A stretch of DNA of 59,733 bases from an uncultured Muribaculaceae bacterium (lineage in GTDB: Bacteria > Bacteroidota > Bacteroidia > Bacteroidales > UBA932): NCBI GenBank assembly GCA_964542575.1, contig CAZIUO010000003.1, positions 1 through 59,733 of the forward strand. The letters are read 5' to 3'. This document shows, piece by piece, positions 20,641 through 49,288 of the stretch; position 1 is the stretch's first letter; each line of letters starts with the position of its first letter. Both the position numbers and the translations under genes were made by a program. The notes below the pieces were generated by a model that saw only the letters and a program-made list of their open reading frames with translations, was not told the origin of the DNA and did not search any database.

Positions 20641-20642
20641 GA

Positions 20643-21056: not shown

Positions 21057-21076
21057 ACATCTAAGATTCAAGATTT

Positions 21077-24271: not shown

Positions 24272-24280
24272 AACGCGACG

Positions 24281-26020: not shown

Positions 26021-26039
26021 TCTATGGGAGAATACAAAA

Positions 26040-27044: not shown

Positions 27045-27070
27045 ACAACACCTAAAAAAACAGATCAGAT

Positions 27071-28219
27071 ATGAAAAGATTATTCACAAATGCCCGCAAG
27101 GCGGCCGCAGCGGCTGTCGTTGCATTGCTGGGCACCGCAATCCTGGCTTCCTGCGGTCCCGAGAAGGCGGACCCCGTGAAGCTCGCCACTCCCCAGCCCG
27201 CACTGCTCTCCTCCACCGAGACATCCCTGACATTCTCCTGGGACAAGGTATCTGGTGCAGTGCAGTATTCCTACACTCTCACCGCCTCCGACGGCACAGC
27301 AGTTGACGGCGGCACCACAGCCAACACCAGCATAGAATTCACCGGCCTGGCAAGCAGCGCCGCATACACCTTCTCCCTCACCGCATATCCCGAGGTGGGC
27401 AGCGAGGATTATCTGACATCCGACGCCGCAACCCTCACCGCCAACACCGCCGACATCCCGCCCGTGACCGAGCTCTGGCGCGTGACCGGAACCTTTGACG
27501 ATGGCACAGGCAATACTTGGGACGATGTTCTGATCGCATACAGCGACGGCAGCTACACCATCAAGGACTGGTACAACATCAAGGGCTACGATTTTGAATT
27601 CGTAATCAACGAAGACGGCACCATCGGCCTGACAAACGGCACTGTCAATGAATATGGCAATCCCAGCATAGAGGCCGGCGATGGTATGGTGGACATCTAC
27701 ACCGGCTATTATGAGGGCTACGCTTATTCCGGAATGGAAGGCGACAAGGAGTCGGGCAGCCTCTGGTTCTCCAGCTACCGTACAGATGCAGACTGCACCC
27801 TGACCTGGCCCGCAGTAGAAGTCGTTCCCGTCACAATGGACGAAATTGTAGGCACTTATACCCAGAGCAGCACCGGGTCGGAGGTATTCAACGGCGAGAC
27901 GTGGAATACCTTCGAATCAACAAACGATGTCACCATCGAGAAGGTTGACGACAACACCGTAACCGTTACCGGTCTTATGTACGAAGAAGGTTCAGTCCTG
28001 ACCGCGAAACTTGACACTGAGGCCGCAACCTTGACTTTTGAGCCGCAGTCTTGGCTTGAATATTACACCTTCTGCCTGTACGATGCCCAGGATTCACCTG
28101 TGATTGCCCATATCAGCAACGGCGTGATAAAACTCAACAACTGGACAGCTTTCTATGTGGGTGATGGCTGGACTTACAGCTATATTTATTCGGCAAAAAG
28201 TGTCCTGACCAAGAAATAA
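27071..28219 (+). CDS. Surface lipoprotein with Fn3-like domain
   Basis: 382 aa with lipobox ILASCG. Has an Fn3-like segment (TSLTFSWDKVSGAVQYSYTLTA..YTFSLTAY). The 3' half is visibly more AT-rich than its neighbours. Confidence 0.65.
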   Translation: MKRLFTNARKAAAAAVVALLGTAILASCGPEKADPVKLATPQPALLSSTETSLTFSWDKVSGAVQYSYTLTASDGTAVDGGTTANTSIEFTGLASSAAYTFSLTAYPEVGSEDYLTSDAATLTANTADIPPVTELWRVTGTFDDGTGNTWDDVLIAYSDGSYTIKDWYNIKGYDFEFVINEDGTIGLTNGTVNEYGNPSIEAGDGMVDIYTGYYEGYAYSGMEGDKESGSLWFSSYRTDADCTLTWPAVEVVPVTMDEIVGTYTQSSTGSEVFNGETWNTFESTNDVTIEKVDDNTVTVTGLMYEEGSVLTAKLDTEAATLTFEPQSWLEYYTFCLYDAQDSPVIAHISNGVIKLNNWTAFYVGDGWTYSYIYSAKSVLTKK

Positions 28220-31039
28220 TCAGTTATCCTCTGTATAAACTGTGATGAATCGGCTGCCGGAACATAAACGGCGGCCGATTTCTTTTATATAGGCCGCATC
28301 TATGCTCTCCAGTACAGATGCGTAGTCATAGCCGTAGTCCACGCCGCCGCTCACATAGTTTTCCATCTGATAGCGCTGGGCGATGATGCTCTCCGCGGTC
28401 TGGGCCTCCTGCTCGCCGCGGTGCTTGGCCAGATACTTGACAGCCACGGCCACCTCCTCTTCAGTGGGGCCGCCGCTGCAGAAGCGCTCCATCTCCCGCT
28501 CGACATCCGCCACAAGCAGCTCCTTCATCTCGGGCCGGGTCTGGAACTCAACATACGACTCGGCCGGGCGGTCTTTCTGCCCCGGATACATCTGGGTGTC
28601 GAACTCTATGTGGTAGGTGCCGCCCCTCTTCTCGCGGATGAGGTTGAGATAGCGCATAGAGAGTATGTGGTCCAGAATGTCCACCGCCGCAAAATTGCGC
28701 GCTGTTTTCTCGATGTCGCCGCTGAATATGCAGCAGACGTCGCACAGCGGAGCCGAGGGGGCGGGAGAAGTGCTCCTGCAGAGGATTTCGCGGCCGCTGT
28801 AGGCCTGTGTGCGGGGTTCAATGCCGGAGAGGCTGCCGCCGCGCCCCAGATCGAGCGGGGCCACATAGCGGCACACAAGGCTCTTGACCAGCTCGGGGTC
28901 GGCGTCGCTGCAGATATACAGCGCACCCCGCTTTGCCCCGGAGAATGCGGCAGCATAGAGCCTCTCCACAGATGCCATATCCAGCGCCGCCACGCCGGCG
29001 GAGTCGGCCTCGGCATTCCAGGGATGGCCGCCGCTGTAGAGATTCTGCCGCTCGCGGGAGAACTTCTCTATTTCGCTCACCGGCTTCGAGAGCTGGCGCA
29101 GATGCGCCTCGCGCGACTTCACAAGCTCCGCTTCGCTGCCAAAGCAAGGCTCCAGAATCTGCAGCGCAAGGGCCTCGAAAGCGGCCTCCTCCTTGCCTCT
29201 GAACGCGGTGAGACTGATGCGGGCCTCGCTCTCGCGAATGGCGACGCTGCTGGAGACCCCCGCAAGCTCCGGTTTGGTGCGCAGCGCGGGGCGGTCGCAG
29301 CCACGGAATCCCGCCATACGGCGGATGTAGGCGGCCGCCTCCTTGTCGCGCGCAATGCTGTCGGGGTCAAAGGCGCGGTAGCCGCTCTTGAATGTAAGGT
29401 CCATCGCCAGATGCACGCTGCCCTCCACCGGGGCGCTCTGCCGGTAATAAACCTTGAGGCCGTTGGAGAGCTTCCACATTCGGAGCCCCTCCTTGCCCAG
29501 GCTCTTCTCCGACACGATTCTGCCCTCGGGCATCTGCACCGAGAGGTCCAGGGCGGGGTATTCAATGAAGCGGCTTTCCAGCGGAGCGGCACACACTTGC
29601 GCCACTATGTCGCGCATCCGGTCGTAGCCGGGCACCTCCGATTCCGCGGCAGTGCTGCAGCAGTTGGAATATATGGCGCCGCTCTCGTCAAACATTTTCT
29701 GCGGATATTCCGCAATCGACTCCTCGGTGATGGAGGCTATGGCCTCGCGCTGGATGTCGGCATACTCGCGGGGACCGACCAGCGGCCATCCGCGCAGGAA
29801 GTTGTCCTGGCAGCGCTTCACAATGCGCTCGCTGGTGATGTCCGCATCCGCCATCTCGGAATCGAGACGGGTGCGCTGCAGCACATTGAGCTTGGCCGCC
29901 GCCAGCTCCGAGGGGCTGATGCCGTAGCGCAGCAGGCGCTCCTTCTCGCGCACCACCATCGCCAGGCATTCGCCCAGCAGGCTGTCGCGGCGCGGCATCA
30001 CGGTTATCATTGTTATGTAGTATTCGGGAGAATATTCGCTGGTGACGCACACCGCCGACTGGGCGGGGCAGCCGCTCTGCTTCTGGCACTCCTTGAGGCG
30101 GTCGCCGAGCACGCTGTTCACCACCAGGCGCGAATACATATCCCTGAAGGTCTCCCGCTCGCTGCGCTGCGCGAATTCGGGATAGGGCTGCTTGTAGAGC
30201 ACCTTGAGCGCCTTGTACTTGACCTCGGGGTCGGTCATGTTGCAGTAGAGGGGCTCGGTCTGAGCCGGGGGCATATACGCCTCCTTGGCGGCGGGGTTCA
30301 CCGCCGCGGGAATGTCGGAGAAGATGGCGCGGATGCGGCTTTCCATCTGCTCCACGTCAAAGTCGCCCACCACGATTATCGCCTGCAGGTCGGGGCGGTA
30401 CCACTTGTGGTAAAAATCCAGAATCTCCTCTCTCTTGAAGCCGTTGATGACCTCCAGGGTCCCCACAACGCTGCGCAGGGGCTGCTTGCCCCCCTTGTAG
30501 ATGAGTTCCGTCTGCCGCTGCGACATCCGGTTGCGGGAGTTGTCGAACAGGCGCCACTCCTCGCTTATCACCCCGCGCTCGTCGTCGAGCTCGTCCTGCT
30601 CGCAGGAGATGTCGCAGCTCCAGTCGCGCAGCACCAAGAGCACCGAATCCACAAACGAATCGCGCACCAGCGGCACTTTGGAGATGTTGTACACCGTCTC
30701 ATTGCGAGATGTGTAGGCGTTCACATTGTAGCCGAAGCGCACCCCCTCGCGGGAGAGGAACTCGATTATCCCCTTGTCGGGATAGTGGCGGGTGCCGTTG
30801 AAGGCCATATGCTCCAGAAAGTGGGCGAGGCCGTTCTGGTTGTCCTCCTCCTGCATCGCCCCCACATTGTGCACTATGAAGAATTCCGCGCAGCCGGCGG
30901 GGTTGCCGTTATGGGCTATGTAGTAGGTCAGGCCGTTGGGCAGCTGCCCGCGGGTGATGGATTTGCTGTCGGGGATATGCTGCGCCAGCGCACTGGCGGC
31001 AACGGCCAGCGCGGCCACGGTCGCAAGAATTCTTCTCAT
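28220..31039 (-). CDS. M16-family (pitrilysin/insulinase) zinc protease, fused tandem form, periplasmic
   Basis: 939 aa. Has a signal peptide (MRRILATVAALAVAASALAQ) and the inverted zinc motif HFLEHMAFNGT. Its size matches four-domain single-chain M16 enzymes. It is the last gene of the TBDR operon. Confidence 0.88.
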   Translation of the reverse strand: MRRILATVAALAVAASALAQHIPDSKSITRGQLPNGLTYYIAHNGNPAGCAEFFIVHNVGAMQEEDNQNGLAHFLEHMAFNGTRHYPDKGIIEFLSREGVRFGYNVNAYTSRNETVYNISKVPLVRDSFVDSVLLVLRDWSCDISCEQDELDDERGVISEEWRLFDNSRNRMSQRQTELIYKGGKQPLRSVVGTLEVINGFKREEILDFYHKWYRPDLQAIIVVGDFDVEQMESRIRAIFSDIPAAVNPAAKEAYMPPAQTEPLYCNMTDPEVKYKALKVLYKQPYPEFAQRSERETFRDMYSRLVVNSVLGDRLKECQKQSGCPAQSAVCVTSEYSPEYYITMITVMPRRDSLLGECLAMVVREKERLLRYGISPSELAAAKLNVLQRTRLDSEMADADITSERIVKRCQDNFLRGWPLVGPREYADIQREAIASITEESIAEYPQKMFDESGAIYSNCCSTAAESEVPGYDRMRDIVAQVCAAPLESRFIEYPALDLSVQMPEGRIVSEKSLGKEGLRMWKLSNGLKVYYRQSAPVEGSVHLAMDLTFKSGYRAFDPDSIARDKEAAAYIRRMAGFRGCDRPALRTKPELAGVSSSVAIRESEARISLTAFRGKEEAAFEALALQILEPCFGSEAELVKSREAHLRQLSKPVSEIEKFSRERQNLYSGGHPWNAEADSAGVAALDMASVERLYAAAFSGAKRGALYICSDADPELVKSLVCRYVAPLDLGRGGSLSGIEPRTQAYSGREILCRSTSPAPSAPLCDVCCIFSGDIEKTARNFAAVDILDHILSMRYLNLIREKRGGTYHIEFDTQMYPGQKDRPAESYVEFQTRPEMKELLVADVEREMERFCSGGPTEEEVAVAVKYLAKHRGEQEAQTAESIIAQRYQMENYVSGGVDYGYDYASVLESIDAAYIKEIGRRLCSGSRFITVYTEDN

Positions 31040-31044
31040 ATTTT

Positions 31045-32634
31045 TTAAAGATTTATGCCGACTGCAAGCGTGGCGATGTTGCGCACGCTGCCGTCAAGGT
31101 ATTCAGGCTTGGAGAGGAGTGAAACGAATCTGTCAGATGCTGTCACCTGCAGCGCGCGCCCCTTGGGCAGAAGGCGGGTGTAAGTGAAAGAGAGTGCGGC
31201 GCCTGCGCGGGAGGCGGTCAGATACTCGAACTGACGGTCGAGCCAGTTGTCAAAGCTGAGTATTGTGGTGGAAGTGCCGCCGGAGTAAGAGCCGTCGGTG
31301 GCGCGGTTGCCGCTGCCGCTGTAGAGCAGCAGGGTCGCGCCGGGGGAGAATATGTTCTTGCCCCTGGCCAGGTTCCACTCGCAGAAGGCGCTGGCGGTGA
31401 CGCTGCTGTAGCTGTTGGTGCGGTAGAAGGGGGTCACGGTGGTGCGCTGGTTGCGGGCGGCATATTCCAGAGCGCCCCCCGCCTTGAATTCGGGCTTGTA
31501 GCCGCCAGTCCCCTTGAAGAAGGTGTAGCCTGCCGATGCGGCGAGGTCGGTGCGGCTCAGGGACTGCTTCTGCCCGGTGTAGTTCACCACGGTGTTCTTG
31601 CCCGCCTCGGTGGTGTAGGTAAAGGTGTTCTCGCGGTTGTTCACGGGGGTGTAGCCCAGGTTGAAATCTATCAGGGAGAGCCGCTCGCCGCGCGGCAGCA
31701 GAATCTTCCCCTTGAGGGAGGTCTGCGCGCCGCTCCACTCGTAATAGACGGGGGAGGTGGATGTCTTGCGGCCGTAATAGCCGTTGCGCGCCAGAATTTC
31801 CGCCTCCACAAAGACCCTGGCCGCGCTGCCGCGCCAGTCAATCTGCAGGCCGGCCCCGCAGAAGGTGTTGTTCACGGGGCGGTATTCCTGGGTGGAGACG
31901 ATGCCGCTGTCGCCGCCCAGCCCCTCGCGGGTGCCGAAGAACCAGCCGCGGTCGCGGATTATGAAGTAGGTGCGGTCTGTGTCGCCGTAGAGCCCGCCCA
32001 TAATCTGCTCCACGCTGTTGCGGTAGCGCAGGTTGAATCCGGCATCGAGGCTCTCGCTTGCCGCATAGTCAAGTCCCAGGGAGAGGTCCATATCCTTGAG
32101 GATGTTGGAAAACCGGGGGTCCTTGACCTTGGTCTGGTCGCCGCAGAGGTAGTCCAGGCGTCCGCCGATGGCCAGCTTCCGCGTCAGGGAGTATGCCAGC
32201 GCCCCCTGCATCGCGTAGAGTTCGCGCTTTTTGCTCCCGGCGGTGTCGGAGTTGTCTTCCAGCAGGCCGAAGGGGTTGAAGTCGGGGTCCATCAGCACGG
32301 GCCCGCCCATCTGTTTCCCCTGAAAATTGGAATAGGACAGTCCTCCATAGAAGACTGTCCTTTCCGATAATCTGTTGTAAGTCTGCGCCTGCGCCCCGCC
32401 CGTAAAACTGTCGGCAGAAGAGCCGATGTCCATAAGCCCCCCGTTATCTTTTGTGGCGGAAATGACCGCGGTGGAGAGGCTTTCAACCCCCAGTCGCGTC
32501 AGAAGCGCGGCATTGGCGCTCTGCAAGTGGGGATTCGTCTGCAGCACAAAGCCGCAATCCTGCTGCCCGGCCGCCGGAAGGGCGGCGAGGCAGAGCGCAG
32601 CGGCCGTGCAAAGGAAGTTTCTGGAGCGGAACAT
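31045..32634 (-). CDS. Outer-membrane beta-barrel protein, unknown function (possibly DUF6850-like)
   Basis: 529 aa with a signal peptide and alternating beta-strand pattern rich in Y/G/S/T. It starts 12 nt after the upstream lipoprotein gene and ends 5 nt before the M16 gene. The family name is unverified recollection. Confidence 0.6.
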   Translation of the reverse strand: MFRSRNFLCTAAALCLAALPAAGQQDCGFVLQTNPHLQSANAALLTRLGVESLSTAVISATKDNGGLMDIGSSADSFTGGAQAQTYNRLSERTVFYGGLSYSNFQGKQMGGPVLMDPDFNPFGLLEDNSDTAGSKKRELYAMQGALAYSLTRKLAIGGRLDYLCGDQTKVKDPRFSNILKDMDLSLGLDYAASESLDAGFNLRYRNSVEQIMGGLYGDTDRTYFIIRDRGWFFGTREGLGGDSGIVSTQEYRPVNNTFCGAGLQIDWRGSAARVFVEAEILARNGYYGRKTSTSPVYYEWSGAQTSLKGKILLPRGERLSLIDFNLGYTPVNNRENTFTYTTEAGKNTVVNYTGQKQSLSRTDLAASAGYTFFKGTGGYKPEFKAGGALEYAARNQRTTVTPFYRTNSYSSVTASAFCEWNLARGKNIFSPGATLLLYSGSGNRATDGSYSGGTSTTILSFDNWLDRQFEYLTASRAGAALSFTYTRLLPKGRALQVTASDRFVSLLSKPEYLDGSVRNIATLAVGINL

Positions 32635-32646
32635 ATGGCGTGGTAA

Positions 32647-33981
32647 CTATTTCAGAGAGCTCTGTGCCCTCTGGTGGAAGTCGGTTGCAGTGTTGTTGGT
32701 CTCGGAGTAGATTATGTGCGCACCGGCAGCGATAGAAGCCTCGGCGTCGATGCCGGAGGGGTCAGTGGTGCCGTTCGCGAGATTGGCGGCGCTGCCGGGC
32801 TCGGTGCCCAGGGCATAGTTGTATACCAGCTTGCCCTCATTCTCTGCGAGAGCCTCGGTGGCAGCCTTGTCCACATTGCGGTAGATTGTGTAGCCCAGCT
32901 TGTTGGTCATCATCACATAGCCGCTGTTCACGTCGGAGGAGAATCTGTATTTGGACTCCTCGGGGGTCTTGGCGCCGTTCCACACCTCGACTGCATCCAC
33001 AATGGAGCTCTTGGCCACTTTCACCACATTGAAGGCGGCAGATGTGCCCATAGTGTGGTCAAATGCCTCGGTGTCCAGGCTCATTGCCTCGATGTCGGCC
33101 TTGGAAGCCTTCATCAGGAACACTGCGGGGGAGTTGTTGGAGAGGGCCCAGGCATTGCCCTGCGTAAAGGGAACCGTGGTCATATAGTGGGTTGCGGGAA
33201 TTGCGTCGTCAACCACATATTTCGCATTCTTGAACTGCTCGTTGGCGGTCATCACATAGTAGTCGGGGTTGTTCAGGGCCACGGAAGTCCCCACCGTTTC
33301 GGTGTGGTCTATCGCGCCGAAGACTGCCACGACAATCTGCGAATAGGGGGCAATGGTCACATCGGAAGAGAAAGACCAGATGGCGCCGATTGCGGGCAGC
33401 CAGCTCTCCTGTGCGTAGCTCTGGACGCCGTCAGTGCCATAATACTTGTTGGTGGCGTTGCTGTTGTAGGGAGCCAGCATACCGATTGCTATGTTGGTGG
33501 CGTCGGCCTCCACATCGGAGTTGTTGTAGAGCACGATGTAGGCGTCGTTGGTGTAATGCTTGCCTGCGTCAGTGGTGCAGCCGCCGCTGTAGATCTCCTT
33601 GATGATTATCTGCTGGGATACGACCTTGTTCAGAGCCACGGAAAACTGGTTTGTGGTGGCGTTGAGCACTGCGATGGAGCTGTTGCTGCCGCTGTAGGTG
33701 TAGGCCTCGGCGTCGCCGCTCTGCTTGAACGATGCGCTCGCGGTGTAGTTGTCCGCGGGAACGCTGAACAGAGCCACGCCGCTCGCGTTGGTGAGGGTGT
33801 CATAAACGGTGCCGGAAGCGTCCACCAGGGTGACGGGGACATTCTCCACAGCCATAGGCTCGCCGTCGAGCGCCAGCTGCACTTCAATGTCCACGAGCCT
33901 GATGTCGGGCACGACGTCCTTGCAGGATGCCGCCGCAAAGAGCAGCGCGGCAAAAGAGAAAATTGAAAGAATCTTTTTCAT
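32647..33981 (-). CDS. Lipoprotein, unknown function (possibly DUF4876-like; weak lamin-tail-like motif)
   Basis: 444 aa with lipobox AAASCK. Has an N-terminal Ig/prealbumin-like segment, then IIIKEIYSGGC...AYIVLYNNSD, which resembles lamin-tail-domain motifs. Starts 21 nt after the TBDR gene. Confidence 0.6.
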   Translation of the reverse strand: MKKILSIFSFAALLFAAASCKDVVPDIRLVDIEVQLALDGEPMAVENVPVTLVDASGTVYDTLTNASGVALFSVPADNYTASASFKQSGDAEAYTYSGSNSSIAVLNATTNQFSVALNKVVSQQIIIKEIYSGGCTTDAGKHYTNDAYIVLYNNSDVEADATNIAIGMLAPYNSNATNKYYGTDGVQSYAQESWLPAIGAIWSFSSDVTIAPYSQIVVAVFGAIDHTETVGTSVALNNPDYYVMTANEQFKNAKYVVDDAIPATHYMTTVPFTQGNAWALSNNSPAVFLMKASKADIEAMSLDTEAFDHTMGTSAAFNVVKVAKSSIVDAVEVWNGAKTPEESKYRFSSDVNSGYVMMTNKLGYTIYRNVDKAATEALAENEGKLVYNYALGTEPGSAANLANGTTDPSGIDAEASIAAGAHIIYSETNNTATDFHQRAQSSLK

Positions 33982-34002
33982 AACCTTACTTATTGTTTAT
34001 CA

Positions 34003-36990
34003 TTAAAATTTGAGTCTGAGGGTGAGCCCGTAGTAAAACTTGGGTATGTAGCTTGTCACGGATATCCGGTTGCCGGTGCGGCTGTCATAGAGCTGCGACA
34101 TATTGTTGAAGAAGTTGTTGGCGTAGAACGATATCGACGCCACATCGCCGATCTCCTTGGTCACATTGAAGTTGGCGCTGAAATAGGGGGTCAGGCGGCT
34201 CTCCTTGAAGGTGTAGTTGTATGAGGTGGTCTGCACCAGCGACACCATATCGGAATATTTCTGCGGGTCGCTGCTCTTGGCCTCCACAAAGTCGGGCCAG
34301 AAGTCGCGCAGCGTGCCGTCGCTGTAGGAGTAGTATTTGTCGGGGTAGAGCACGGTGTAGCAGTCGCCGTCGTAGATGGAGGCCTCCTCCACGCGCGAAG
34401 TCAGATCGGAGCGGTCGGCGATTACATACGAGCGGCGGCTGCCGTCGGCATTTTCGCTCAGGGTGCGGCTGTAGTGCAGCAGGCAGGCCTCCAGCTTGAA
34501 GGAGACCACCATCCTCACCTTGGGGATGTTGGTGGTGACGGTCACATTGGTCTTGAGGCTGCGGGTCTGCTGGCCGTTGGAGGTCTTGTATCCGCCGACG
34601 TAGTAGCCCACATATTTGAGCGGAGTGCGGTCGTAGCCCATCTGCGAGGTGGCCACATACGGCATATAGTCGGTGTAGACCTGCTTGTATGTGTAGTAGG
34701 TGCCGTCCAGGCGTATCTGGGTGTTGAGCGACTTTATCCGCTTGAAGTCCACCACATATTCAAATCCGCGGCGCACAATCGGATTGTCGTCGTTGTCCTC
34801 GTAATAAGTTGCCGTAAAGCCGTCCATCTTGCGGCCGGCGAGGGTGGCGGAAGGGTTGGCCCCGCTCTTGTCGCTCACTGTGATGACGCCGCTTTCGGGG
34901 TCCACCGAGAAGACGCGGTCGGCGGCGGGTATCGCGCTTGCCGCCTCGCTGTTCTTTATGGCGTCGGTGGGGGTGTAGAGATAGCTGAACCGCTCGTAGT
35001 CGTTCACCAGGCGGTAGGCGTCAAGGGTCCTGCTCATAAAGGCGGCCAGGCTCACCTTGTGCCCCGCCAGGTTGAAGTCCACCCCGACCTCCGCCTGCCG
35101 GTTGCGCTGCCAGCGCAGGGCGGAATTGTACACGATGGTGCGCGGCAGCACATAATAGGCGCTGTAGAGGTCGTTGATGCTGCCCGCGGTGGAGGTGAAC
35201 ACGTTTATGTCGTAATAAGTCGGCTGGGGAAAGAGTATCGAATAGGAAGGCTGCTTCACCGCCTGGCCCCAGCTGGCCCTCACCGAGAAGTCGCGCAGGG
35301 TGCGGCCGCGCCGCCCTTTCTCGGAAAACGGGCTGTAGCGGGCGTTGAAGCGGGGCGAGAGGCTGCTTGTGGTGCCGTATGCCGAGCCGCTGATTATTGT
35401 GTTGTCCCAGCGCACGCCCGCCACCAGGTTCAGCTCTCCGCTGCGCCCCACGGGCAACACGATGTCGTCCTCTGCATAGGCGGCCGCATTGTGCATCGCG
35501 GGGACCTTGCTGTAGTCATACGGACGGTATGTGGGGGCGGTGGACATATCTTCTGAATACTGCCCCTGCCCATAGTTGCGGTCCAGGGTCCAGTCGGCGC
35601 CCGCCTTGAACCTGTTCTTGACGTCGCCGAAACTGCGGGCCCAGTTGGCCTTGAGCGAGACTTTGGAGTTGAAGGGCTTGTCGTCCAGCACCATCATATT
35701 GTACCACTGCCCGGCGGGAATCCGGTCGGCAAAGAGATATCCCTGCTCTGTGGTGTGCAGGGCGGCCTGCGCCGTGGTGCCGAACACCGAGGTGTTCTCG
35801 CGGCTCAGCTTGTCGGAATATACGGCAGAAGCCTTGAGCTCTATGTTGGTGATCCAGCTCTTGCTCAGCAGCCAGTTGAAGGCGAGGCTGCCGCGCAGGG
35901 TGTTGTCGCGGCTGCGGGTATAGGCCTCGGTGGAGCGGTCGGGGTCGGCCCTGTTGTCCAGGCCGCCCGCGTTGCCGGTGAGCGAGGCGCTCACAGAGAG
36001 GGGCGTCTGCTCGAATATCCCCCTTGAAACGGTGTTGTTCCAGGCCAGCGACACCTGCTTGCGCTCATAGGAGGTGTAGGGCGACATCTGCAGCGATATG
36101 GAGCGGGTGTACTCCGCGCTGGTGTTGAGAGTGCCGCGGCTGCCCCCGCGCGAATTCGTCCCCAGGCCGAAGCCCTTGCTCAGGGAGACCTGCTTGGTGT
36201 TGGGGCTGGTGGTCATTGTCACCGTGAAGGGGGTCTTGCCCCGCTTGGTGTTGATTTTGACCACGCCGGATGTCATATCGCCGTATTCCACCGAGGGGAC
36301 GCCGGTGATTACCTCCACCGACTCCACGTTGGAAGATGCTATATTGTTGGTGGATACGCCCTTGAGATTAGTGCCGGAACGGTCGGCCCCCGAGAAGGAG
36401 GCGTTGCTGGAGAGGCGCACGCCGTCCACCTCCACCGCTGTGCCGAATGTGGAGTTGCCCCCCTCGCCCGAGGACTCGCTGCGGATGGCTATCTGCCCGC
36501 CGCTCCCGGTCAGATTGGGGTTGACCGTGCTTCCGCCCGGCAGCAGGCTGGCGATGTCGGAGACATTCAGCATCTGCACCTGCTCCAGCGCCGTGCGGTC
36601 TATCCTGCGCGATGTGGTGGCGGAGGAGGAATTCTCCTGCGCAGTGACCACCGCGCTCTCCAGCGCCAGGTTGTCCTGCAGCAGCGCCACGGAAAAATTG
36701 GTGATGTCGCGCGAAATCTTGATTTCCCGCTGCCAGGTGACATATCCCAGGCAGTAAACTTTGACTTCTGCGCTGCCGGCGCTGATGCCGGAAATGGAGA
36801 AGCGCCCCTTGGCGTCTGCGGTGGCCCACTGCCCCGTGGACTCTATCGCCACTGCGGCAAACTCCACAGGATCACCCGTTTCCTTGTCGCTGACAACGCC
36901 GGAGAGAGTATATGTCTGGGCAAAGGCCTGCGCACAGGAAAAAAGGCAGGCAAAAAGCAATATGAGTCTTCTTGTTTTCACAGCGCGCAA
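34003..36990 (-). CDS. TonB-dependent receptor with carboxypeptidase-regulatory-like N-domain
   Basis: 995 aa. Has a signal peptide (LILLFACLFSCAQAFA), TYTLSGVVSDKETGDPVEFAAV, a plug and a 22-strand-sized barrel ending in LRLKF. There is no ATG start; it uses TTG at 36990 or GTG at 36981. Confidence 0.88.
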   Translation of the reverse strand: MRAVKTRRLILLFACLFSCAQAFAQTYTLSGVVSDKETGDPVEFAAVAIESTGQWATADAKGRFSISGISAGSAEVKVYCLGYVTWQREIKISRDITNFSVALLQDNLALESAVVTAQENSSSATTSRRIDRTALEQVQMLNVSDIASLLPGGSTVNPNLTGSGGQIAIRSESSGEGGNSTFGTAVEVDGVRLSSNASFSGADRSGTNLKGVSTNNIASSNVESVEVITGVPSVEYGDMTSGVVKINTKRGKTPFTVTMTTSPNTKQVSLSKGFGLGTNSRGGSRGTLNTSAEYTRSISLQMSPYTSYERKQVSLAWNNTVSRGIFEQTPLSVSASLTGNAGGLDNRADPDRSTEAYTRSRDNTLRGSLAFNWLLSKSWITNIELKASAVYSDKLSRENTSVFGTTAQAALHTTEQGYLFADRIPAGQWYNMMVLDDKPFNSKVSLKANWARSFGDVKNRFKAGADWTLDRNYGQGQYSEDMSTAPTYRPYDYSKVPAMHNAAAYAEDDIVLPVGRSGELNLVAGVRWDNTIISGSAYGTTSSLSPRFNARYSPFSEKGRRGRTLRDFSVRASWGQAVKQPSYSILFPQPTYYDINVFTSTAGSINDLYSAYYVLPRTIVYNSALRWQRNRQAEVGVDFNLAGHKVSLAAFMSRTLDAYRLVNDYERFSYLYTPTDAIKNSEAASAIPAADRVFSVDPESGVITVSDKSGANPSATLAGRKMDGFTATYYEDNDDNPIVRRGFEYVVDFKRIKSLNTQIRLDGTYYTYKQVYTDYMPYVATSQMGYDRTPLKYVGYYVGGYKTSNGQQTRSLKTNVTVTTNIPKVRMVVSFKLEACLLHYSRTLSENADGSRRSYVIADRSDLTSRVEEASIYDGDCYTVLYPDKYYSYSDGTLRDFWPDFVEAKSSDPQKYSDMVSLVQTTSYNYTFKESRLTPYFSANFNVTKEIGDVASISFYANNFFNNMSQLYDSRTGNRISVTSYIPKFYYGLTLRLKF

Positions 36991-37008
36991 AATTAATTAC
37001 TTTTGCGC
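36985..37008. promoter_or_regulatory. 24-bp near-perfect palindrome (candidate operator) in the TBDR / polyferredoxin divergent gap
   Basis: GCGCAAAAtTAATTAcTTTTGCGC, with 11 of 12 position pairs complementary. It overlaps the TBDR TTG start codon (36988-36990) and a plus-strand TActTTTG -7-like box (36998-37005) located 29 nt before the polyferredoxin ATG. Confidence 0.45.
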
Positions 37009-37033
37009 AAATTTTATATCCCTAAAAAGAGCT

Positions 37034-39070
37034 ATGAGCAAGAAATCACTGATTTGCAAGAACTGGCCCAAGTATCTCCTGCAGTGGGGAGTGCTGGCGG
37101 CCCTCGTTTTCTTTTTGAGCGGCCTCGCTGCCAAGATTTTCCCGGCGATGGAGCCGGTCGACCCCGAAGCCTACTGCCCGATGGGGGGTCTGCAGGCCTT
37201 CGGCACCTTCCTCTCCAGAGGGTCCCTCCCCTGCTCGATGTCCTCCGCCCAGATTATGATGGGCATCGGCCTGGCCATCGCGGTGATTCTGTTCAGCAAG
37301 CTCTTCTGCGCCTTCCTCTGCCCCGTCGGATCGGTGGAGGACCTGCTGGGCAAGGCGGGGCACGCGCTGCACATCAAGAGCCTCGAAATCAAGAGCGGCA
37401 GCGCCGCAGACAAGATTCTGCGCATCGTCAAGTATGCCCTGCTCTTCTGGATTGCGTATATGACCATCTCCAGCAGCGAGCTCTTCTGCAAGAAGCTGGA
37501 CCCCTACTACGCCGCCGCCACAGGCTTCAAGGGGGAGATAGTGCTCTGGATGAGCCTCGCGTCGCTGTTTCTGGTGATTGTGCCCGCCCTCTTCATAAAG
37601 CGCTTCTGGTGCAGATACATCTGCCCGCTGGGGGCCCTCTCCAACACCTTCAAGTTCTACTTCGCCCTCGCGGGGGCGGGGATCGTGTTCTGGGTCCTGA
37701 GCCTCTGCGGGGTGCATTTCAGCTTTGTATGGCCGCTGGCCGCCCTCTGCATCATCGGCTATCTGCTTGAAATATTCTGCGGCAAGCCCAAGGGACAGCT
37801 GCTGCACGTCGCCGTGGACCAGGAGACCTGCACCCACAGCTGCTACCGCTGCCGCAAGGTGTGCCCCTACAACATTTCGGTGCCCGACTTCGGCGGCAAG
37901 GTCAATTCTGTGGACTGCACCCTCTGCGGCGAGTGCGTGGCCGCCTGCCCCGTGGGGGCCCTCAGCATCGGGAACTGCAAGAGCGGCAAAAAATGCGGCT
38001 TCGGCAAATATCTTCCCGCCCTGCTGGCGGTGCTGATTGCCCTGGCGGCCTACTTCGCCGGCCAGCGCACAGAACTGCCCACCATCAACGAGAGCTGGGG
38101 CGCCGCCGACAGCCTCGCCCTCTCCACCCTCAAGATAGAGAATCTCAAGACAGTGAAATGCTACGGCAGCTCTATGGCCTTCAAGAGCAAGATGGAGAAA
38201 ATCCGCGGCGTGTACGGCGTCAAGACCTACGTCGGCAGCCACACCGTCGTAATCAAATATGACCCCGCCGCAATAGACGAGCAGACCCTGCGCGGCAAGG
38301 TGTTCGACCCCTCCACATTCAAGGTGGCGACCCCCGACCCCGCCCTCCTGGACAGCCTCAAGATAGTCACCATCCGCACCGACAAGATGTTCGACAAGCT
38401 GGACCTCAACTATCTGGGACTGCAGATGCGCCTCACCGGCAAGCGGATCTACGGCCTCGAGTCGGAATACGCCTGCCCGCTGATAGTCAGGGTTTATGCC
38501 GACCCCGCAGAGCCTCTTGACAGCGACTTCTTCCGCTCTGTAGTGGAAAAGAAGTCTCTGGATATGCCCCTGCACGGCGGCGGAGTCAAGAGCACCCCTG
38601 TCGACTTCCAGTTCGTCAAGATGGAGGAGGGCGAGGGGCGCATCGCCACCACCGACTACCTGCAGAGGATGTTCGCCCCCTTCAAGGCGGAATACAAGGG
38701 GCGCTACCCCGACGGCGACTCCACCGTGGTGCTCAGCCGCAAGGAGGTCTACAAAGACAAGCCGCAGTTTATCTACGAAATTGCCGACCCCAACTACGAG
38801 AAGCCCATCGTCCGCCGCAACCTCCCCTACCTGAGCAACCATATCTCCAAGGAGGAGGGGGTCATCGGCCTCTATCTCAACCTCAACGGCGACTACAAGC
38901 CCGCCCTGCAGATCCGCTTTGCCGACCCTATGACGGAAGAGAAGCTCTGGGAGCTCCTCACTATGGAAAAATGGAGCATCAGCTATGCAGAGGATGACGT
39001 CCGCGAAGAGGACGCCCGCATCAAATTCACCGAGAAGGGCGTCTGCCGCCCCTATGTAGAAGCCGAATAA
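37034..39070 (+). CDS. Membrane-bound polyferredoxin, NapH/MauN/CcoG-type, with large non-Cys C-terminal region
   Basis: 678 aa from MSKKSLICKNWPKYLL. Has several TM segments, two CX3CP motifs (CAFLCP, CRYICP) plus YCPMGG, two 4Fe-4S motifs (CTHSCYRCRKVCP, CTLCGECVAACP) and a further TM. A tail of about 300 aa then contains a ferredoxin-fold/HMA-like unit without a CxxC motif. Confidence 0.8.
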   Translation: MSKKSLICKNWPKYLLQWGVLAALVFFLSGLAAKIFPAMEPVDPEAYCPMGGLQAFGTFLSRGSLPCSMSSAQIMMGIGLAIAVILFSKLFCAFLCPVGSVEDLLGKAGHALHIKSLEIKSGSAADKILRIVKYALLFWIAYMTISSSELFCKKLDPYYAAATGFKGEIVLWMSLASLFLVIVPALFIKRFWCRYICPLGALSNTFKFYFALAGAGIVFWVLSLCGVHFSFVWPLAALCIIGYLLEIFCGKPKGQLLHVAVDQETCTHSCYRCRKVCPYNISVPDFGGKVNSVDCTLCGECVAACPVGALSIGNCKSGKKCGFGKYLPALLAVLIALAAYFAGQRTELPTINESWGAADSLALSTLKIENLKTVKCYGSSMAFKSKMEKIRGVYGVKTYVGSHTVVIKYDPAAIDEQTLRGKVFDPSTFKVATPDPALLDSLKIVTIRTDKMFDKLDLNYLGLQMRLTGKRIYGLESEYACPLIVRVYADPAEPLDSDFFRSVVEKKSLDMPLHGGGVKSTPVDFQFVKMEEGEGRIATTDYLQRMFAPFKAEYKGRYPDGDSTVVLSRKEVYKDKPQFIYEIADPNYEKPIVRRNLPYLSNHISKEEGVIGLYLNLNGDYKPALQIRFADPMTEEKLWELLTMEKWSISYAEDDVREEDARIKFTEKGVCRPYVEAE

Positions 39071-39071
39071 T

Positions 39072-41021
39072 ATGAAAAGAGCCTTTCTGACCCTGGCGGC
39101 GCTGCTGTGCTGCCTCCTGGCCCGCGCCGACGAAGGTATGTGGCTGGTTAACGCAATTTCCCGCGCCCTGGAGGCGCAGATGCAACAGAAGGGGCTGGAG
39201 CTATCTTCCGGCGACATCTACAACGAAGAGAGCGGCGGCCTGTGCGACGCCATAGTGTCGCTGGACTTCGGCTGCACCGGCAGCTTCATCTCCTCCGAAG
39301 GGTTGCTGGTGACCAACCACCACTGCGCCTACGGCGACGTCCACGCCCTCAGCACCCCGGAGCACAACTATCTGGAAGACGGGTTCTGGGCCATGAGCCG
39401 CAGCGAGGAGATTGCCATAAAGGGTAAGAAGGCCTACCTGCTGCACCGCATAATCGATGTCACCGACGAGGTCGGTGCCCTCAAGGAGCAGGAGGCCGCC
39501 GCAGGCAAATCCACCGGCCTGCGCCGCCTGAGCTGGATTATGGAGAAGCGCTATGCCGCCCAGACCGGCTACGACGCCTCCCTCTCGGCGATGTGGGCCG
39601 GCGAGCGCTACTATATGGCGCTTTACGATGTCTACGACGACGTCCGCCTGGTGGCCGCCCCGCCCGTGAGCATCGCCGCCTTCGGCGGAGACGTGGACAA
39701 CTGGGAGTGGCCCCAGCACAAGTGCGACTTCGCCCTCTACCGCGTCTACAAGGACGGCGCCCCCCTCAACCCCCGCCGCCACCTGCAAATCAGCCGCAGC
39801 GGCTATGCCCCGGGCGACTTTGCAATGGTCATCGGCTATCCGGGGCGCACCGACCGCTACAGTTCCTCATATAAAGTCGAGTTCGAGCAGAACCTCTCGC
39901 TGCCCATCTCCAACCGCATCCGCGGCCGTCAGATGGAGATTTTGCGGCACTGGATGGACGCCGACCCGGCAGTCCGCCTCAAATATGCCGACAAATTCTT
40001 CTCCCTGAGCAATGTGCAGGAGCTTGACGAGGGGCAGGTGGACTGCTACAAAAAATATGGCGTCGTCCGCTGCAAGCGCCGCGAAGAGCACAAGATGCAC
40101 GGCTGCGACTCCCTTCTGCAGGCCATCAAGGCCAGATACCGCGACATCAGCGACGTGAAGCGCGGAGAAATCTACTACCGCGAGACCCTGGTGCGCTGCG
40201 GCGGCCTCAACCTTATATGCCTCAAGCTCAAGAACAATGTGTCCGGGCTGAATCTGGAGAAGGAATACGCCGCCCTGGATATGCGCGTGGAGCGGGACCT
40301 CTTCCGCTACTGCATAGAAGAATATTTTGAGAACGAGCCCGACAAATATCTCGGCGCCTTCCAGAAAGAGCTCAAGAGCCGCTTTGGCAGCGACTACGAC
40401 GCTATGGCGGAATATCTCTGGCTCGACCGTCCAGTGACGCGCGAAGACGGCCTCTTCCGCTTTTTCACCGACATCAACGCCTCCGCCTTCGCTTCGGTTC
40501 AGAGAGAGCTGGAGCAGGGGGTGACGGTGAACGAGCTGGAGCACCGCTACACCCGCGCCCTCTATCAGAATCGGCAGCGGCGGGGTCTGGAGCAGTATCC
40601 CGACGCCAACTTCACTATGCGCCTGACATTCGGCACCGTGAAGAGCTTCCGCCGTGGCTGCAAAAAGGTCCCCTGGCAGACCTGCGCCTCCGGCATCCTG
40701 GCCAAGGAAGACACCGCAGCCCACGACTTCTGCCTCAAGAGCGACTGGCGATGCCTGCTGTGCGACAGCTGCGACGCCGCCTTCCCGGTGAACTTCATCA
40801 CCGACAACGACATCACCGGGGGCAACTCCGGCAGCCCGGTGCTGAATGCGCGCGGAGAGCTCATCGGCCTGGCATTCGACGGCAACAAGGAGTCGCTCGC
40901 AAGCAACGCCTCGTTCACTGCGGCATACAACCGCTGCGTGTGCGTGGATATACGCTTTGTGCTCTGGACTCTGGAGCACTACGCAAAGATGGACGGCATC
41001 CTAGCCGAGATCGGAGAATAG
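39072..41021 (+). CDS. S46-family dipeptidyl-peptidase (DPP7/DPP11-like), periplasmic
   Basis: 649 aa. Has a signal peptide then the DEGMW start, catalytic His context VTNHHCAY and catalytic Ser context GGNSGSPVLN. Starts 1 nt after the polyferredoxin stop. Confidence 0.88.
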   Translation: MKRAFLTLAALLCCLLARADEGMWLVNAISRALEAQMQQKGLELSSGDIYNEESGGLCDAIVSLDFGCTGSFISSEGLLVTNHHCAYGDVHALSTPEHNYLEDGFWAMSRSEEIAIKGKKAYLLHRIIDVTDEVGALKEQEAAAGKSTGLRRLSWIMEKRYAAQTGYDASLSAMWAGERYYMALYDVYDDVRLVAAPPVSIAAFGGDVDNWEWPQHKCDFALYRVYKDGAPLNPRRHLQISRSGYAPGDFAMVIGYPGRTDRYSSSYKVEFEQNLSLPISNRIRGRQMEILRHWMDADPAVRLKYADKFFSLSNVQELDEGQVDCYKKYGVVRCKRREEHKMHGCDSLLQAIKARYRDISDVKRGEIYYRETLVRCGGLNLICLKLKNNVSGLNLEKEYAALDMRVERDLFRYCIEEYFENEPDKYLGAFQKELKSRFGSDYDAMAEYLWLDRPVTREDGLFRFFTDINASAFASVQRELEQGVTVNELEHRYTRALYQNRQRRGLEQYPDANFTMRLTFGTVKSFRRGCKKVPWQTCASGILAKEDTAAHDFCLKSDWRCLLCDSCDAAFPVNFITDNDITGGNSGSPVLNARGELIGLAFDGNKESLASNASFTAAYNRCVCVDIRFVLWTLEHYAKMDGILAEIGE

Positions 41022-43808
41022 CTTTTTGAGATATCTGCCGGTGTAGGACTCTGTGCAGCGGGCCACATCCTCAGGGGTGCCGCTGCACACGATGTTGCCG
41101 CCGGCCGCCCCCCCTTCGGGCCCCATATCCACAAGATAATCCACACTCTTGAGCACGTCCAGATTGTGCTCTATGACAATCACCGTGTTGCCCTGGTCCA
41201 CCAGCAGCTGCAGAACCTCCATCAGCTGCTTTATGTCGCCGAAGTGCAGCCCCGTGGTGGGCTCGTCCAGCAGGTAGAGGGTGTTGCCGGTGCTCTTGCG
41301 GCTGAGCTCGGCGGCCAGCTTTACGCGCTGGCTCTCGCCGCCGGAGAGGGTCGTTGAGGGCTGTCCCAGCTTCACATACCCCAGCCCGACATCTTCCAGC
41401 GCCTTGATGCGGGGGTAGATGTAGGGGTTGGACTTGAAGAACTCGCACGCCTGGGAAATAGTCATTTCCAGCACGTCGTTTATGTTCTTCCCCTTGTAGT
41501 GCACCGCCAGGGTGTCGGGCTTGTAGCGCTTGCCTCCGCACTCCTTGCAGGTGACGTGCGCGGGGGGCAGAAAGCGCATCTCGATCTCCTGGATGCCGGC
41601 CCCCTTGCAGGCCTCGCAGCGCCCGCCGGCGGTGTTGAACGAGAAGCGTCCCGCCTTGAAGCCGCGGATTTTGGCGTCCGGGGTCTGCCCGAACAGCTCG
41701 CGGATGGCGGTGAACACATTCACGTATGTGGCGGGATTGCTGCGGGGAGAGCGTCCTATGGGGCGCTGGTCCACCTCAATCACCTTGTCTATGTTTTCAA
41801 TCCCCTCCAGGGCGTCGTAGGGCAGCACCGGATAGAGAGAGCGATAGAACTTGTTGCTGAGCAGCGGCATCAGGGTCTGCGCAATCAGCGAACTTTTGCC
41901 GCTGCCGCTCACGCCGCTGATGCCCACCAGGCAGCCCAGCGGGATGGTCAGGTCCACATTCTTGAGGTTGTTGCCCCTTGCGCCGCGCAGCACGAGGCAC
42001 TTGCCGCTCCCCTTGCGCCGCACTGCGGGCACCTCAATGGCCTTGCGCCCCATCAGAAAATCGGTGGTGGGGGTCGACGGGGCCGACGCAATGTCCTTGG
42101 GAGAGCCGTTGTAGAGCAGTTCGCCGCCAAGTTCGCCCGCACCGGGGCCGAGGTCCACCAGCCAGTCCGCCTGCTCCATTATTTCGCGGTCGTGCTCCAC
42201 CACCAGCACCGAATTGCCCTCGTCGCGCAGCGTCTTGAGCGACGCTATCAGCTTGTCGTTGTCTCTCTGATGCAGCCCGATGCTGGGTTCGTCCAGAATG
42301 TAGAGGACATTCACCAGCTTGCTGCCGATCTGCGTGGCGAGCCTGATGCGCTGGCTCTCGCCGCCGGAGAGGGTCGCCACCGGGCGGTCCAGCGATAGAT
42401 ATCCCAGCCCTACATCCCTGAGGAAGCCCACCCGGTCGCCGATCTCCTTGAGCAGGGCGCCGCCGATGAGCTTCTGGCGGTGGTCCAGATGCAGCGGCAG
42501 CACCTTGACCCAGTCGTAGAGGGCGTCGATGTCCATTGCCGCCACCTCCGCTATGTTCTTGCCGTCAAGGCGGAAGCAGAGCGACTCCTTTTTGAGCCGG
42601 GTGCCGCCGCACTCGGGGCACACGGTGTATTGCACATACCGCTGCTCTTTGCGGGGCTGGGAGTCATCCCCCTCGGAAGCGGCCACCGCGCGCGGGATGA
42701 GTCCCTCGAAGGTGACCATCTGCTGCTCGCTGCCGCTGCCCACCCTCAGCAAATCCTCAGAGCCGTAGAGCAGCGCGCTCATAGCCTCCTCGGGAATCGA
42801 GTCGATGGGGTCTTTAAGTGAGAATTTGTATTTTTTTGCCAGCGCCTCGATGGTGTCGAACAGGGCGTTCTTGCGGCTGGGGCCCAGCGGCACAATCCCC
42901 CCCTCCGCAATCGAGCGGCTGCCGTCGGGGATAATCTTCTCCCGCTCCATACAAATCACCTTGCCCAGGCCGCCGCAGTGCGGGCAGGCCCCCTGGGGCG
43001 AGTTGAAAGAGAAGGTGTGGGGGGCCGGGGTGCTGAACGACAGCCCTGTGTCGGGGCACACATAGTTCTTGCTCAGAAAGCGCAGCGGCCCGCCGCCGTA
43101 TTCCATCAAGGCGATGCTCCCCTTGCCCTGCGCAAGGGCTGTGGCCAGCGAAGAGGCCACCCTGCTGCCGGCATTGCCGTCTATCTTGAGCTTGTCCACC
43201 ACAAGATATATGAAGTGGGTCTTGTAGCGGTCCAGCGGAGTTATCGTGGAGAGGTCGCGCAGCTCGTCATCTACCAGCACCTGGTTGTAGCCCTTCTTAA
43301 CGAGATGCTCGAACAGATCCTTGTAGTGTCCCTTGCGCCCCTGCACCAACGGCGAGAGCAGCAACAGCTTGCGGCCGTCGTACTCCTTCATTATCAGCTC
43401 CGCGATCATCGCGTCGGTGTAGCGGACCATCTCCTTGCCGGTCACGGGGGAGTAGGCCTGCGCCGCGCGGGCATACAGCAGACGGAAGAAGTCGTAGATT
43501 TCTGTCAGAGTCCCTATGGTGGAGCGGGGATTGCGCCCGGTGGTCTTCTGCTCTATGGCCAGGATGGGGCTCAGGCCGCGGATGTCGTCCACATCGGGCC
43601 GCTCCAGCATCCCCATAAACTGCCGCGCGTAGGTGTTGAGGGTGTCCACATAGCGGCGCTGCCCCTCGGCGTAGATTGTGTCGAAGGCCAGGGAACTCTT
43701 GCCGCTGCCGCTCACTCCCGTCACCACCACCAGCTTGTCGCGGGGGATGGAGAGGGATATGTTCTTGAGGTTGTGCGACCGCGCGCCTGTGATTTCGATA
43801 CTGTCCAT
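41001..43808 (-). CDS. uvrA: Excinuclease ABC subunit A
   Basis: 935 aa. Has [45 protein letters not shown] and two ABC modules. Its 3' end overlaps the convergent S46 gene by 21 nt. Confidence 0.95.
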
Positions 43809-48228: not shown

Positions 48229-48269
48229 AAATTGATTTGTTTATTGGTGTTAGTGCTTAATTCACGCTG

Positions 48270-48875: not shown

Positions 48876-48898
48876 AATTCTGATTCCTTTTTAGAAGA

Positions 48899-49288
48899 TT
48901 AAACTTTACGACGACCTTTGGGACGGCATCCGTTGTGAGGCAGCGGTGTTACGTCAATGATTTCGGTGACCTCGATACCCTCGGTATGCACGGTGCGGAT
49001 AGCGGACTCACGGCCGCTGCCGGGGCCCTTCACATAAGCCTTCACCTTGCGCAGACCCAGGTCGTAAGCAACCTTGGCAGCGTCCTGTGCAGCAACCTGA
49101 GCTGCATAGGGAGTGTTCTTCTTGGAACCTCTGAAACCCATCTTACCAGCGGAAGACCAGCTGATGACCTGGCCTGTGGAGTTGGTGATGGAGACAATTA
49201 CATTGTTGAAAGTTGAAGAGACATGAAGTTGTCCGTAAGCATCAACCTTAACAACTCTCTTTTTGTTTGTTGTAGTCTTTTTTGCCAT
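48899..49288 (-). CDS. rpsK: 30S ribosomal protein S11
   Basis: 129 aa, containing [14 protein letters not shown]. Confidence 0.95.

Follow-up and report, generated by a model that had tools for sequence, protein, structure and literature searches.

What would bring a TonB-dependent transporter (TBDT), two further outer-membrane proteins, two proteases, and a membrane-bound polyferredoxin together in one gene cluster? The question is raised by a six-gene module in DNA of an uncultured Muribaculaceae bacterium (Bacteroidales; UBA932; assembly GCA_964542575.1, contig CAZIUO010000003.1), of which a stretch of 59,733 nucleotides (nt), here called the window, was analyzed (G+C ~60%). The minus strand carries, in operon order, the genes for the TBDT (34003–36990; 995 amino acids (aa) from a TTG start), a DUF4876 lipoprotein (32647–33981; 444 aa), a DUF6850 barrel (31045–32634; 529 aa), and an M16 protease (28220–31039; 939 aa), with gaps of 21, 12, and 5 nt between successive genes. 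Divergently, across a spacer of 43 nt, the plus strand carries the gene for the polyferredoxin (37034–39070; 678 aa), followed after 1 nt by that for an S46 dipeptidyl-peptidase (39072–41021; 649 aa). The sizes, gaps, orientation, and family calls given for the six genes in a preliminary description of this DNA were all correct, as judged from open reading frame coordinates and Pfam/NCBIfam searches.

The module is read here as serving protease-associated TonB-dependent uptake of peptides or small proteins, a reading on which our judgement is evenly poised. It is a real variant of protease-associated import that is undescribed in the literature searched; the preliminary description had known of no report of the composite architecture, and no account of the cluster was found there. 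The whole analysis rests on sequence, models, and gene neighbourhood, within a single uncultured clade of Bacteroidales. It establishes the gene families, the intact catalytic motifs, the export signals, and the conserved linkage, from which cargo, regulation, topology, enzyme activities, order of action, and the part played by the polyferredoxin are deduced. To date, protease-associated import has been characterized in Proteobacteria, and peptide uptake in Bacteroidetes via RagAB, the SusC/SusD-type oligopeptide importer of Porphyromonas gingivalis. The module would be a third, independently assembled solution, in which a non-homologous transporter and its DUF4876 lid are joined by an additional barrel and by periplasmic peptidases in as many as three tiers. 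Peptide or protein cargo would also be the first definite clue to function for a DUF4876/DUF6850 transporter branch whose relatives are among the most iron-responsive genes in P. gingivalis and Bacteroides thetaiotaomicron. It is seemingly widespread in uncultured ruminant-gut Bacteroidales, where nitrogen efficiency depends on protein breakdown.

Conservation of the gene set in related genomes

Do the six genes belong together? Scans with a DUF6850 alignment retrieved 35 loci from a set of one genome per species and 80 more from metagenomes; 38 loci with full flanks were counted (21 species-representative and 17 metagenome loci, the latter partly redundant). The nearest public relative, an uncultured bacterium, encodes proteins 93–96% identical to those of the window; the remaining relatives are metagenome-assembled genomes of Bacteroidales, mostly from ruminants, some named Candidatus Cryptobacteroides. 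The trio of TBDT, DUF4876, and DUF6850 genes is intact in all loci where the contig allows it to be read (38/38 with full flanks). It is accompanied by M16 in 29, by S46 in 29, and by the polyferredoxin in 14 of these 38 loci (14, 16, and 9, respectively, of the 21 species loci; 15, 13, and 5 of the 17 metagenome loci). All six genes are present in seven of the species loci, M16 with S46 in five, S46 only in four, M16 with the polyferredoxin in two, and the trio only in three. Wherever the polyferredoxin gene stands next to the trio, M16 is there too (14/14), and every M16 homologue whose locus was read sits in an operon of the window's type.

At least six gene orders occur among the related loci, in several genomic contexts. 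The window has the polyferredoxin and then S46 leading away from the TBDT-to-M16 operon; in other loci S46 is nearer to the TBDT gene and the polyferredoxin follows it, S46 or the polyferredoxin is divergent from the TBDT gene by itself, all six genes form a single co-directional operon (L004, L006, L028), or the polyferredoxin gene follows M16 (L015). The control was 72 proteins encoded on the module's flanks, which fell into 69 Pfam families; the commonest, peptide deformylase, was met five times. The linkage of the module genes in related genomes is beyond chance, and their co-occurrence outside the window's own genome, for which the preliminary description had proposed a neighbourhood check, is borne out in several gene orders across Bacteroidales relatives.

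An inherited synteny, in which the two divergent units remain neighbours while functionally uncoupled, would also put these genes side by side. All loci come from one Bacteroidales clade, and both the polyferredoxin gene and a polyferredoxin–S46 pair exist away from any TBDT gene; the genes have nevertheless stayed adjacent through six or more rearrangements and in several genomic settings, and two clades of S46 as well as a C69 dipeptidase have been placed beside one type of trio. We regard this explanation as very improbable.

Proteases, transporter, and barrel

What could the proteases do? The M16 protein matches Peptidase_M16 and M16_C in Pfam and carries a signal peptide (MRRILATVAALAVAASALA, with cleavage before Q). 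Among solved structures it matched PqqL (6ofs; 2.2e-57 over residues 22–863), FusC (6b03; 1.2e-36), and, best and over nearly its full length, an uncharacterized M16 protein (9LDY; 5.6e-101), for which no paper was found in the literature; insulin-degrading enzyme (~1e-13) and mitochondrial processing peptidases matched the first domain alone. These values uphold the earlier view of the protein as FusC/PqqL-like, and by homology it is a single-chain, four-domain zinc protease of the PqqL/FusC class. The residues H73-x-x-E76-H77, E154, E160, and E161 show no variation among 121 sequences, and the enzyme is predicted to be active, exported, and periplasmic. As in the import systems of Grinter et al. 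(2019), an M16 protein of FusC/PqqL type with a signal peptide and an HxxEH motif is encoded in the transporter operon. A clade signature, C142-x3-C146, is present in 118–121 of the 121 closest M16 homologues and C50 in 106 of the 121; PqqL and 9LDY have no cysteine at the positions matching C50, C142, and C146. These cysteines could make up a redox or metal-binding site within the catalytic half. Looked up by its exact sequence, the window's M16 protein gave no record, and several literature matches to "M16" were discarded as false, being mutant names and sample labels.

The S46 protein matches Peptidase_S46 (Pfam, 2.4e-156) and DPP11 (4xzy; 8.4e-90). It has the build of the family (DPP7, DPP11, DAP BII), in which a signal peptide comes first and a helical domain interrupts the chymotrypsin fold with its catalytic triad. 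The motifs with the catalytic His, Asp, and Ser (TNHHC, CDFALYRVY, and GGNSGSP) are kept and align to those of 4xzy, in agreement with the dipeptidyl-peptidase call made previously; the helical domain is shorter and divergent. In the same alignment Gly604 (FDGN) stands at the position of DPP11's Arg (FDRN), which we take to be the acid-specifying residue, so that the protein is presumably DPP7-like; it scores 380 bits with the NCBIfam Dpp7 equivalog (cut-off 1200) and is thus a family member and not a DPP7 orthologue. It is predicted to be active and exported to the periplasm.

The S46 genes adjoining the trio belong to two deep paralogue clades: those of clade A lie immediately beside the TBDT gene and diverge from it, and those of clade B either accompany the polyferredoxin gene or stand at the end of the operon. 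Pairwise distances of S46 track those of the TBDT poorly (Spearman 0.36; M16 0.75, DUF6850 0.73, polyferredoxin 0.61), which, with the two clades, points to paralogue replacement or independent recruitment. In each of three lineages the trio has a C69 dipeptidase gene as its immediate neighbour (on the same strand and 20 nt before the TBDT gene in the L126 group, L119–L132; upstream in L072; downstream in L081), and an S9 peptidase gene adjoins S46 in L002. In the farthest lineage found (DUF6850 32–33% and M16 41–42% identical to the window) one operon runs C69, TBDT, DUF4876, DUF6850, M16, S46. An endopeptidase, dipeptidyl-peptidases, and a dipeptidase have thus been gathered repeatedly round one transporter, which suggests that peptides are delivered and digested to completion; the accretion of peptidases (two S46 clades, C69, S9) favours bulk peptide degradation over the single cut that would release a cofactor.

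What would be carried to them? The TBDT consists of a signal peptide, a CarboxypepD_reg-like N-terminal extension, a plug, and ~750 aa beyond the plug (Pfam CarbopepD_reg_2, 8e-15; Plug, 8.6e-09); its orthologues additionally match TonB_dep_Rec_b-barrel, and LESAVVTAQ is a candidate TonB box, picked out by visual comparison with the common TBDT motif. No SusC model in NCBIfam matched it, the sole match there being a weak siderophore-receptor model, and neither SusD_RagB (Pfam) nor SusC-type NCBIfam matches were found among the operon proteins; the operon is accordingly not of the SusC/SusD type of polysaccharide utilization loci or RagAB. The region beyond the plug is of SusC-like length, as against a median of ~570 aa in small-substrate TBDTs, and this long barrel region suggests peptide or small-protein cargo.

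Is the transporter then a relative of FusA or YddB, a comparison that the preliminary description had proposed? No such kinship was found: phmmer against the PDB gave no match at E ≤ 0.01, and a profile of seven orthologues gave weak generic matches to N-terminal extensions and plugs, among which neither FusA nor YddB appeared at E ≤ 1. The likeness of the transporter to Fus is therefore one of analogy, not of homology, and by these comparisons the module appears as an analogous system with a homologous protease, not as a member of the protease-associated import family by descent. The Fus and YddB/PqqL systems (Grinter et al. 2019, PMC6793856) likewise encode a TBDT with a periplasmic single-chain four-domain M16 protease, and redox partners are known in some Fus-like clusters as the polyferredoxin is in the module. 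The module differs from them in that its transporter is unrelated in sequence and has the Bacteroidetes N-terminal extension, and in that an obligatory DUF4876 lipoprotein and DUF6850 barrel are added together with exopeptidases (S46, and C69 in some lineages); compared with Fus, FusB (TonB) and FusD (ABC) genes are absent from the module and the phylum is another.

RagAB of P. gingivalis, with DPP4/5/7/11, similarly combines a TBDT and lipoprotein lid with periplasmic dipeptidyl-peptidases of S46 type; in that species periplasmic dipeptidyl-peptidases are reported to use imported oligopeptides (PMC8048996). The module is set apart by a non-SusC TBDT with a DUF4876 lid in place of a SusC/SusD-type pair, by peptidases encoded in or beside the transporter operon, and by the added second barrel and polyferredoxin.

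The lipoprotein is a DUF4876 protein (Pfam, 3.5e-09, above cut-off) with the lipobox AASC and Cys20, hence a surface-lipoprotein candidate, and matched no PDB sequence. In ~120 related loci a DUF4876 gene invariably comes directly after the TBDT gene. DUF4876 proteins have been proposed as lids of non-SusC TBDTs from AlphaFold-Multimer models and conserved proximity, the modelled lid leaving an opening of ~20 Å (bioRxiv 10.1101/2023.03.17.533168). The operon shows the arrangement of such a pair, a TBDT gene followed on the same strand by that of a lipobox-bearing DUF4876 protein, and the lipoprotein is by analogy a putative transporter lid. The loci already described (BT1938/39, BT3632/33, PG1019-22; bioRxiv 10.1101/2023.03.17.533168, PMC10434189) have the same order of TBDT and DUF4876; no M16, S46, or polyferredoxin partner is reported for them, BT3625-33 has PepSY-TM and ABC genes, and their response to iron starvation is documented.

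The third outer-membrane component belongs to DUF6850 (Pfam, 1.3e-38), has a signal peptide, and was found in every related locus. Its AlphaFold2 model (pLDDT 90, pTM 0.85) is a plug-less barrel of ~19–20 strands, with which Foldseek retrieved generic large barrels alone (TM-score 0.3–0.4); a DUF6850 scan of viral contigs, a search of little use, returned nothing. A second, orphan DUF6850 gene lies in the window at 45143–46621 (−; 492 aa; Pfam 1.2e-32), 17% identical to the operon copy; it is directly 3' of rplQ, where the ribosomal-protein/rpoA/secY cluster ends, and neither a TBDT nor a DUF4876 gene adjoins it.

Slam systems of Proteobacteria are dedicated barrels for surface lipoproteins, and an extra barrel beside a TBDT and surface-lipoprotein pair recalls them. 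On that model M16 and S46 would process or degrade the module's own envelope proteins in biogenesis or quality control, DUF6850 would be a Slam-like translocon that brings the DUF4876 lipoprotein to the surface, and the import of foreign protein would play no part. The plug-less barrel and the orphan gene would suit it; Pfam and Foldseek gave no similarity to Slam (DUF560) or Omp85, S46 and C69 are exopeptidases of the kind that suits nutrient peptides, and the orphan shows that a DUF6850 barrel can do its work with no lipoprotein to partner it. We find this model hardly credible.

For peptide uptake, the order of action that we infer is as follows. Placed on the outside of the non-SusC TBDT, the DUF4876 lipoprotein would help to capture the cargo, which would be moved to the periplasm with TonB energy; M16 would cut it to oligopeptides, from which the DPP7-like S46 enzyme would free dipeptides, with the C69 dipeptidase completing digestion in some lineages. 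The DUF6850 barrel would be an indispensable third component of the outer membrane that may form a channel or help in assembly, and the polyferredoxin an accessory tied most closely to S46.

The polyferredoxin and the question of metals

Why should a peptide importer be accompanied by a redox protein? The polyferredoxin matches Fer4_5 twice in Pfam along with 4Fe-4S motifs; its two CX3CP and two 4Fe-4S motifs are all conserved. With NCBIfam it scores below cut-off throughout (NapH/MauN TIGR02163, 50.8 bits against 213; PRK09477, 43.4 against 234; NosR, 41.5 against 1000). No FixG_C match was found in the protein and no cbb3 genes in the window, which sets it apart from the cupric reductase CcoG, and with no nap genes in the window and the score given above it is not placed with NapH/MauN. 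Of the NapH/CcoG-type assignment made in the preliminary description, the paired CX3CP and 4Fe-4S motifs, as in CcoG, stand; membership of either family does not. CcoG, NapH/MauN, and NosR are likewise polytopic, with two CX3CP and two 4Fe-4S motifs followed by a transmembrane helix and a predicted extracytoplasmic C-terminal domain; the present protein has a 333-aa domain beginning with an HMA unit in place of the Ig-like FixG_C of CcoG, and genes of the cbb3 oxidase, nap, and nos systems are missing from its surroundings.

The AlphaFold2 model (pLDDT 75) has seven transmembrane helices followed by the alpha/beta C-terminal domain of 333 aa, the first unit of which resembles HMA domains (MNK1, ATP7B, MerP, CopZ; Foldseek probability 1.0, TM-score ~0.7 over 61–66 aa); the full model gave no global match in Foldseek. 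C376, H403, and C481 are conserved in this domain. From the positive-inside rule we infer that the CX3CP and Fe-S parts are cytoplasmic and the C-terminal domain periplasmic. An exhaustive search found the domain in 157 clusters among 1.84 billion (1.84e9) representatives; nearly all full-length matches were 630–740 aa long, 5/5 of those checked with Pfam had a Fer4_5 N-terminus, and one remote match was to a copper ATPase, in its HMA repeats. As far as these matches go, the domain is confined to the Fer4_5-type architecture. A small polyferredoxin family of which no description was found is thereby defined, with a predicted periplasmic HMA-like domain genetically tied to a dipeptidyl-peptidase.

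Its tightest partner is S46 clade B, the two genes overlapping or nearly abutting even far from any TBDT gene. Such a pair away from a TBDT operon is seen in L048–L051 (polyferredoxin 10001–12022, S46 12009–13997; overlap 14 nt). Lone polyferredoxin genes stand beside a nitroreductase gene (L052) and beside AMMECR1, radical-SAM, and Memo genes (L054). As a best guess, the polyferredoxin would pass electrons from its cytoplasmic 4Fe-4S clusters to the periplasmic HMA-like, cysteine-bearing domain, which would reduce bound metal or disulfides arriving with the peptide cargo.

A gene for a 353-aa MauE-family membrane protein converges on M16 in L002 (12827–13888, −) and L003 (9356–10417, −), neither of which has a polyferredoxin; an open reading frame in L032 (14418–15479, −) matches it in size and position, the family call having been made for L002 and L003 alone. 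Given that the best NCBIfam match of the polyferredoxin is NapH/MauN, this neighbour may hint at redox or thiol chemistry in the periplasm, or may be there by chance.

Several observations weigh against uptake of peptides as the purpose of the module. In P. gingivalis, B. thetaiotaomicron, and Prevotella intermedia, DUF4876-TBDT loci are among the genes most induced by iron starvation, with a 20- to 214-fold induction on iron depletion in these three Bacteroidetes (PMC10434189), which speaks for a role in acquiring metals and not in feeding on amino acids. Nine related loci (L002, L003, L018, L021, L022, L027, L033, L034, L043) have a Fur-box-like palindrome, ATCAT-N5-ATGAT, 5' of their TBDT gene. 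The trio is without any peptidase in 5/38 loci, so that peptidases are not obligatory; conservation within a single uncultured clade is partly inheritance. Finally, close and distant members of the polyferredoxin family occur alone elsewhere, which makes the polyferredoxin's membership the weakest link.

Across the 819 kb of related loci this palindrome has nine copies, all of them upstream of a TBDT gene and ~95–160 nt from its start. A further element, AATGATAATCATTA, present in four loci (L022, L027, L040, L043), equals 14 consecutive bases of the Fur consensus used for scanning; L040 has this near-canonical Fur-box core without the exact palindrome. The exact Escherichia coli Fur consensus is absent from all loci, and no Fur-like box lies in the window's own 43-nt control region. 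Approximate matches (13–15 of 19 bases) are common by chance, and position-specific motifs alone were retained. In several loci the palindrome falls within the divergent S46 gene, among signal-peptide codons that are unusually rich in A and T.

Could the module then import a small non-protein metal chelate or another small nutrient, with peptidase and polyferredoxin neighbours that are separate in function? Known lid-associated non-SusC TBDTs carry small substrates, cobalamin and enterobactin among them (bioRxiv 10.1101/2023.03.17.533168), and the iron regulation of the relatives and the peptidase-free trios would agree with this. However, M16 is, judged by gaps of 5–30 nt, co-transcribed in most loci; four peptidase families have been recruited repeatedly and in varied positions; the barrel region is far longer than in small-substrate TBDTs; and no other family recurs comparably in the flank control. 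We consider such an importer improbable.

A metal-directed function closer to Fus follows the preliminary description: a metalloprotein or metal-binding peptide would be imported, its cofactor freed by the proteases, and the metal reduced or passed on by the polyferredoxin. The class of the M16 protease, the redox partners of Fus-like clusters, the iron response of DUF4876-TBDT loci, and the Fur-like elements of the related loci are all consistent with it, as are the CxxxC of the M16 clade, missing from PqqL and 9LDY, and the polyferredoxin itself, with its CcoG-like motifs, predicted periplasmic HMA-fold domain bearing C376, H403, and C481, and remote copper-ATPase match. Yet the TBDT has no detectable FusA/YddB similarity, an HMA fold without CxxC is no proof of metal binding, and exopeptidases (S46 in 29/38 loci, C69) are needless for cofactor release and fit complete digestion. 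Piracy of this kind is doubtful but distinctly possible; it is kept as the main rival to peptide uptake, and not as the lead, because the window has no Fur-like box in its promoter region, the polyferredoxin is found in about one-third of the loci (14/38) and alone elsewhere, and its regular partner is S46 clade B.

The two ideas may also be combined. The module would then be a hitherto unrecognized kind of Bacteroidales machinery for using proteins or peptides: the non-SusC TBDT, DUF4876, and DUF6850 would feed a periplasmic protease cascade coupled to membrane electron transfer, in which the polyferredoxin, through its cytoplasmic 4Fe-4S clusters and HMA-like domain, and the CxxxC of M16 reduce metal-bound or disulfide-locked cargo for digestion or metal harvest; in this full form the proposal is speculative and unlikely.

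The divergent control region and the surrounding genes

How are the two units expressed? The region between them, as read from the sequence (36982–37033), contains an 8+8 palindrome, GCGCAAAA-N8-TTTTGCGC, at 36985–37008. The Bacteroidetes-type −7 promoter box is TAnnTTTG, and the palindrome reads as two such predicted boxes back to back: TACTTTTG (36998–37005, +) for the polyferredoxin gene and TAATTTTG (36995–36988, −) for the TBDT gene. A first reading of the palindrome as a possible operator was dropped in favour of these. Similar TAnnTTTG boxes lie 5' of the TBDT gene in most related loci. A scan for sigma-70 promoters and terminators, which also picked up the palindrome, gave counts at chance level.

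The start of the TBDT is uncertain (TTG at 36990 or GTG at 36981); a public call of 992 aa on a near-identical contig fits GTG 36981. The box TAATTTTG overlaps TTG 36990 and stops 6 nt before GTG 36981 (window 36979–36995). Its predicted position, with the 992-aa call, would imply a leaderless or near-leaderless TBDT mRNA.

Both ends of the module are tightly bounded. The S46 gene overlaps the convergent uvrA gene (41001–43808, −) by 21 nt (41001–41021), and M16 meets a convergent gene for an fn3 protein (27071–28219, +) with no spacer (28219/28220), which leaves no space for intrinsic terminators at either end. The fn3 gene is the last of a locus resembling one for protein use (18508–28219, +) that converges on M16 and also encodes an M6 (immune inhibitor A-like) peptidase (18508–20640, +), an actual SusC/SusD-like pair at 21077–26020 (SusC-like TBDT, 21077–24271, +; SusD-like protein, 24281–26020, +), and a 334-aa protein of no family. 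The SusC/SusD-like genes were rejected as members of the module, being kept solely in the closest relatives.

Further out, the G+C content drops from ~0.60 to 0.48–0.56 over the ribosomal-protein/secY/rpoA cluster (48001–58000). At the other side of the window, 36–15389 has a nitrogen-assimilation neighbourhood with genes for type III glutamine synthetase, an aminotransferase, DapF, CTP synthase, the small and large subunits of glutamate synthase, and asparagine-synthase-like proteins.

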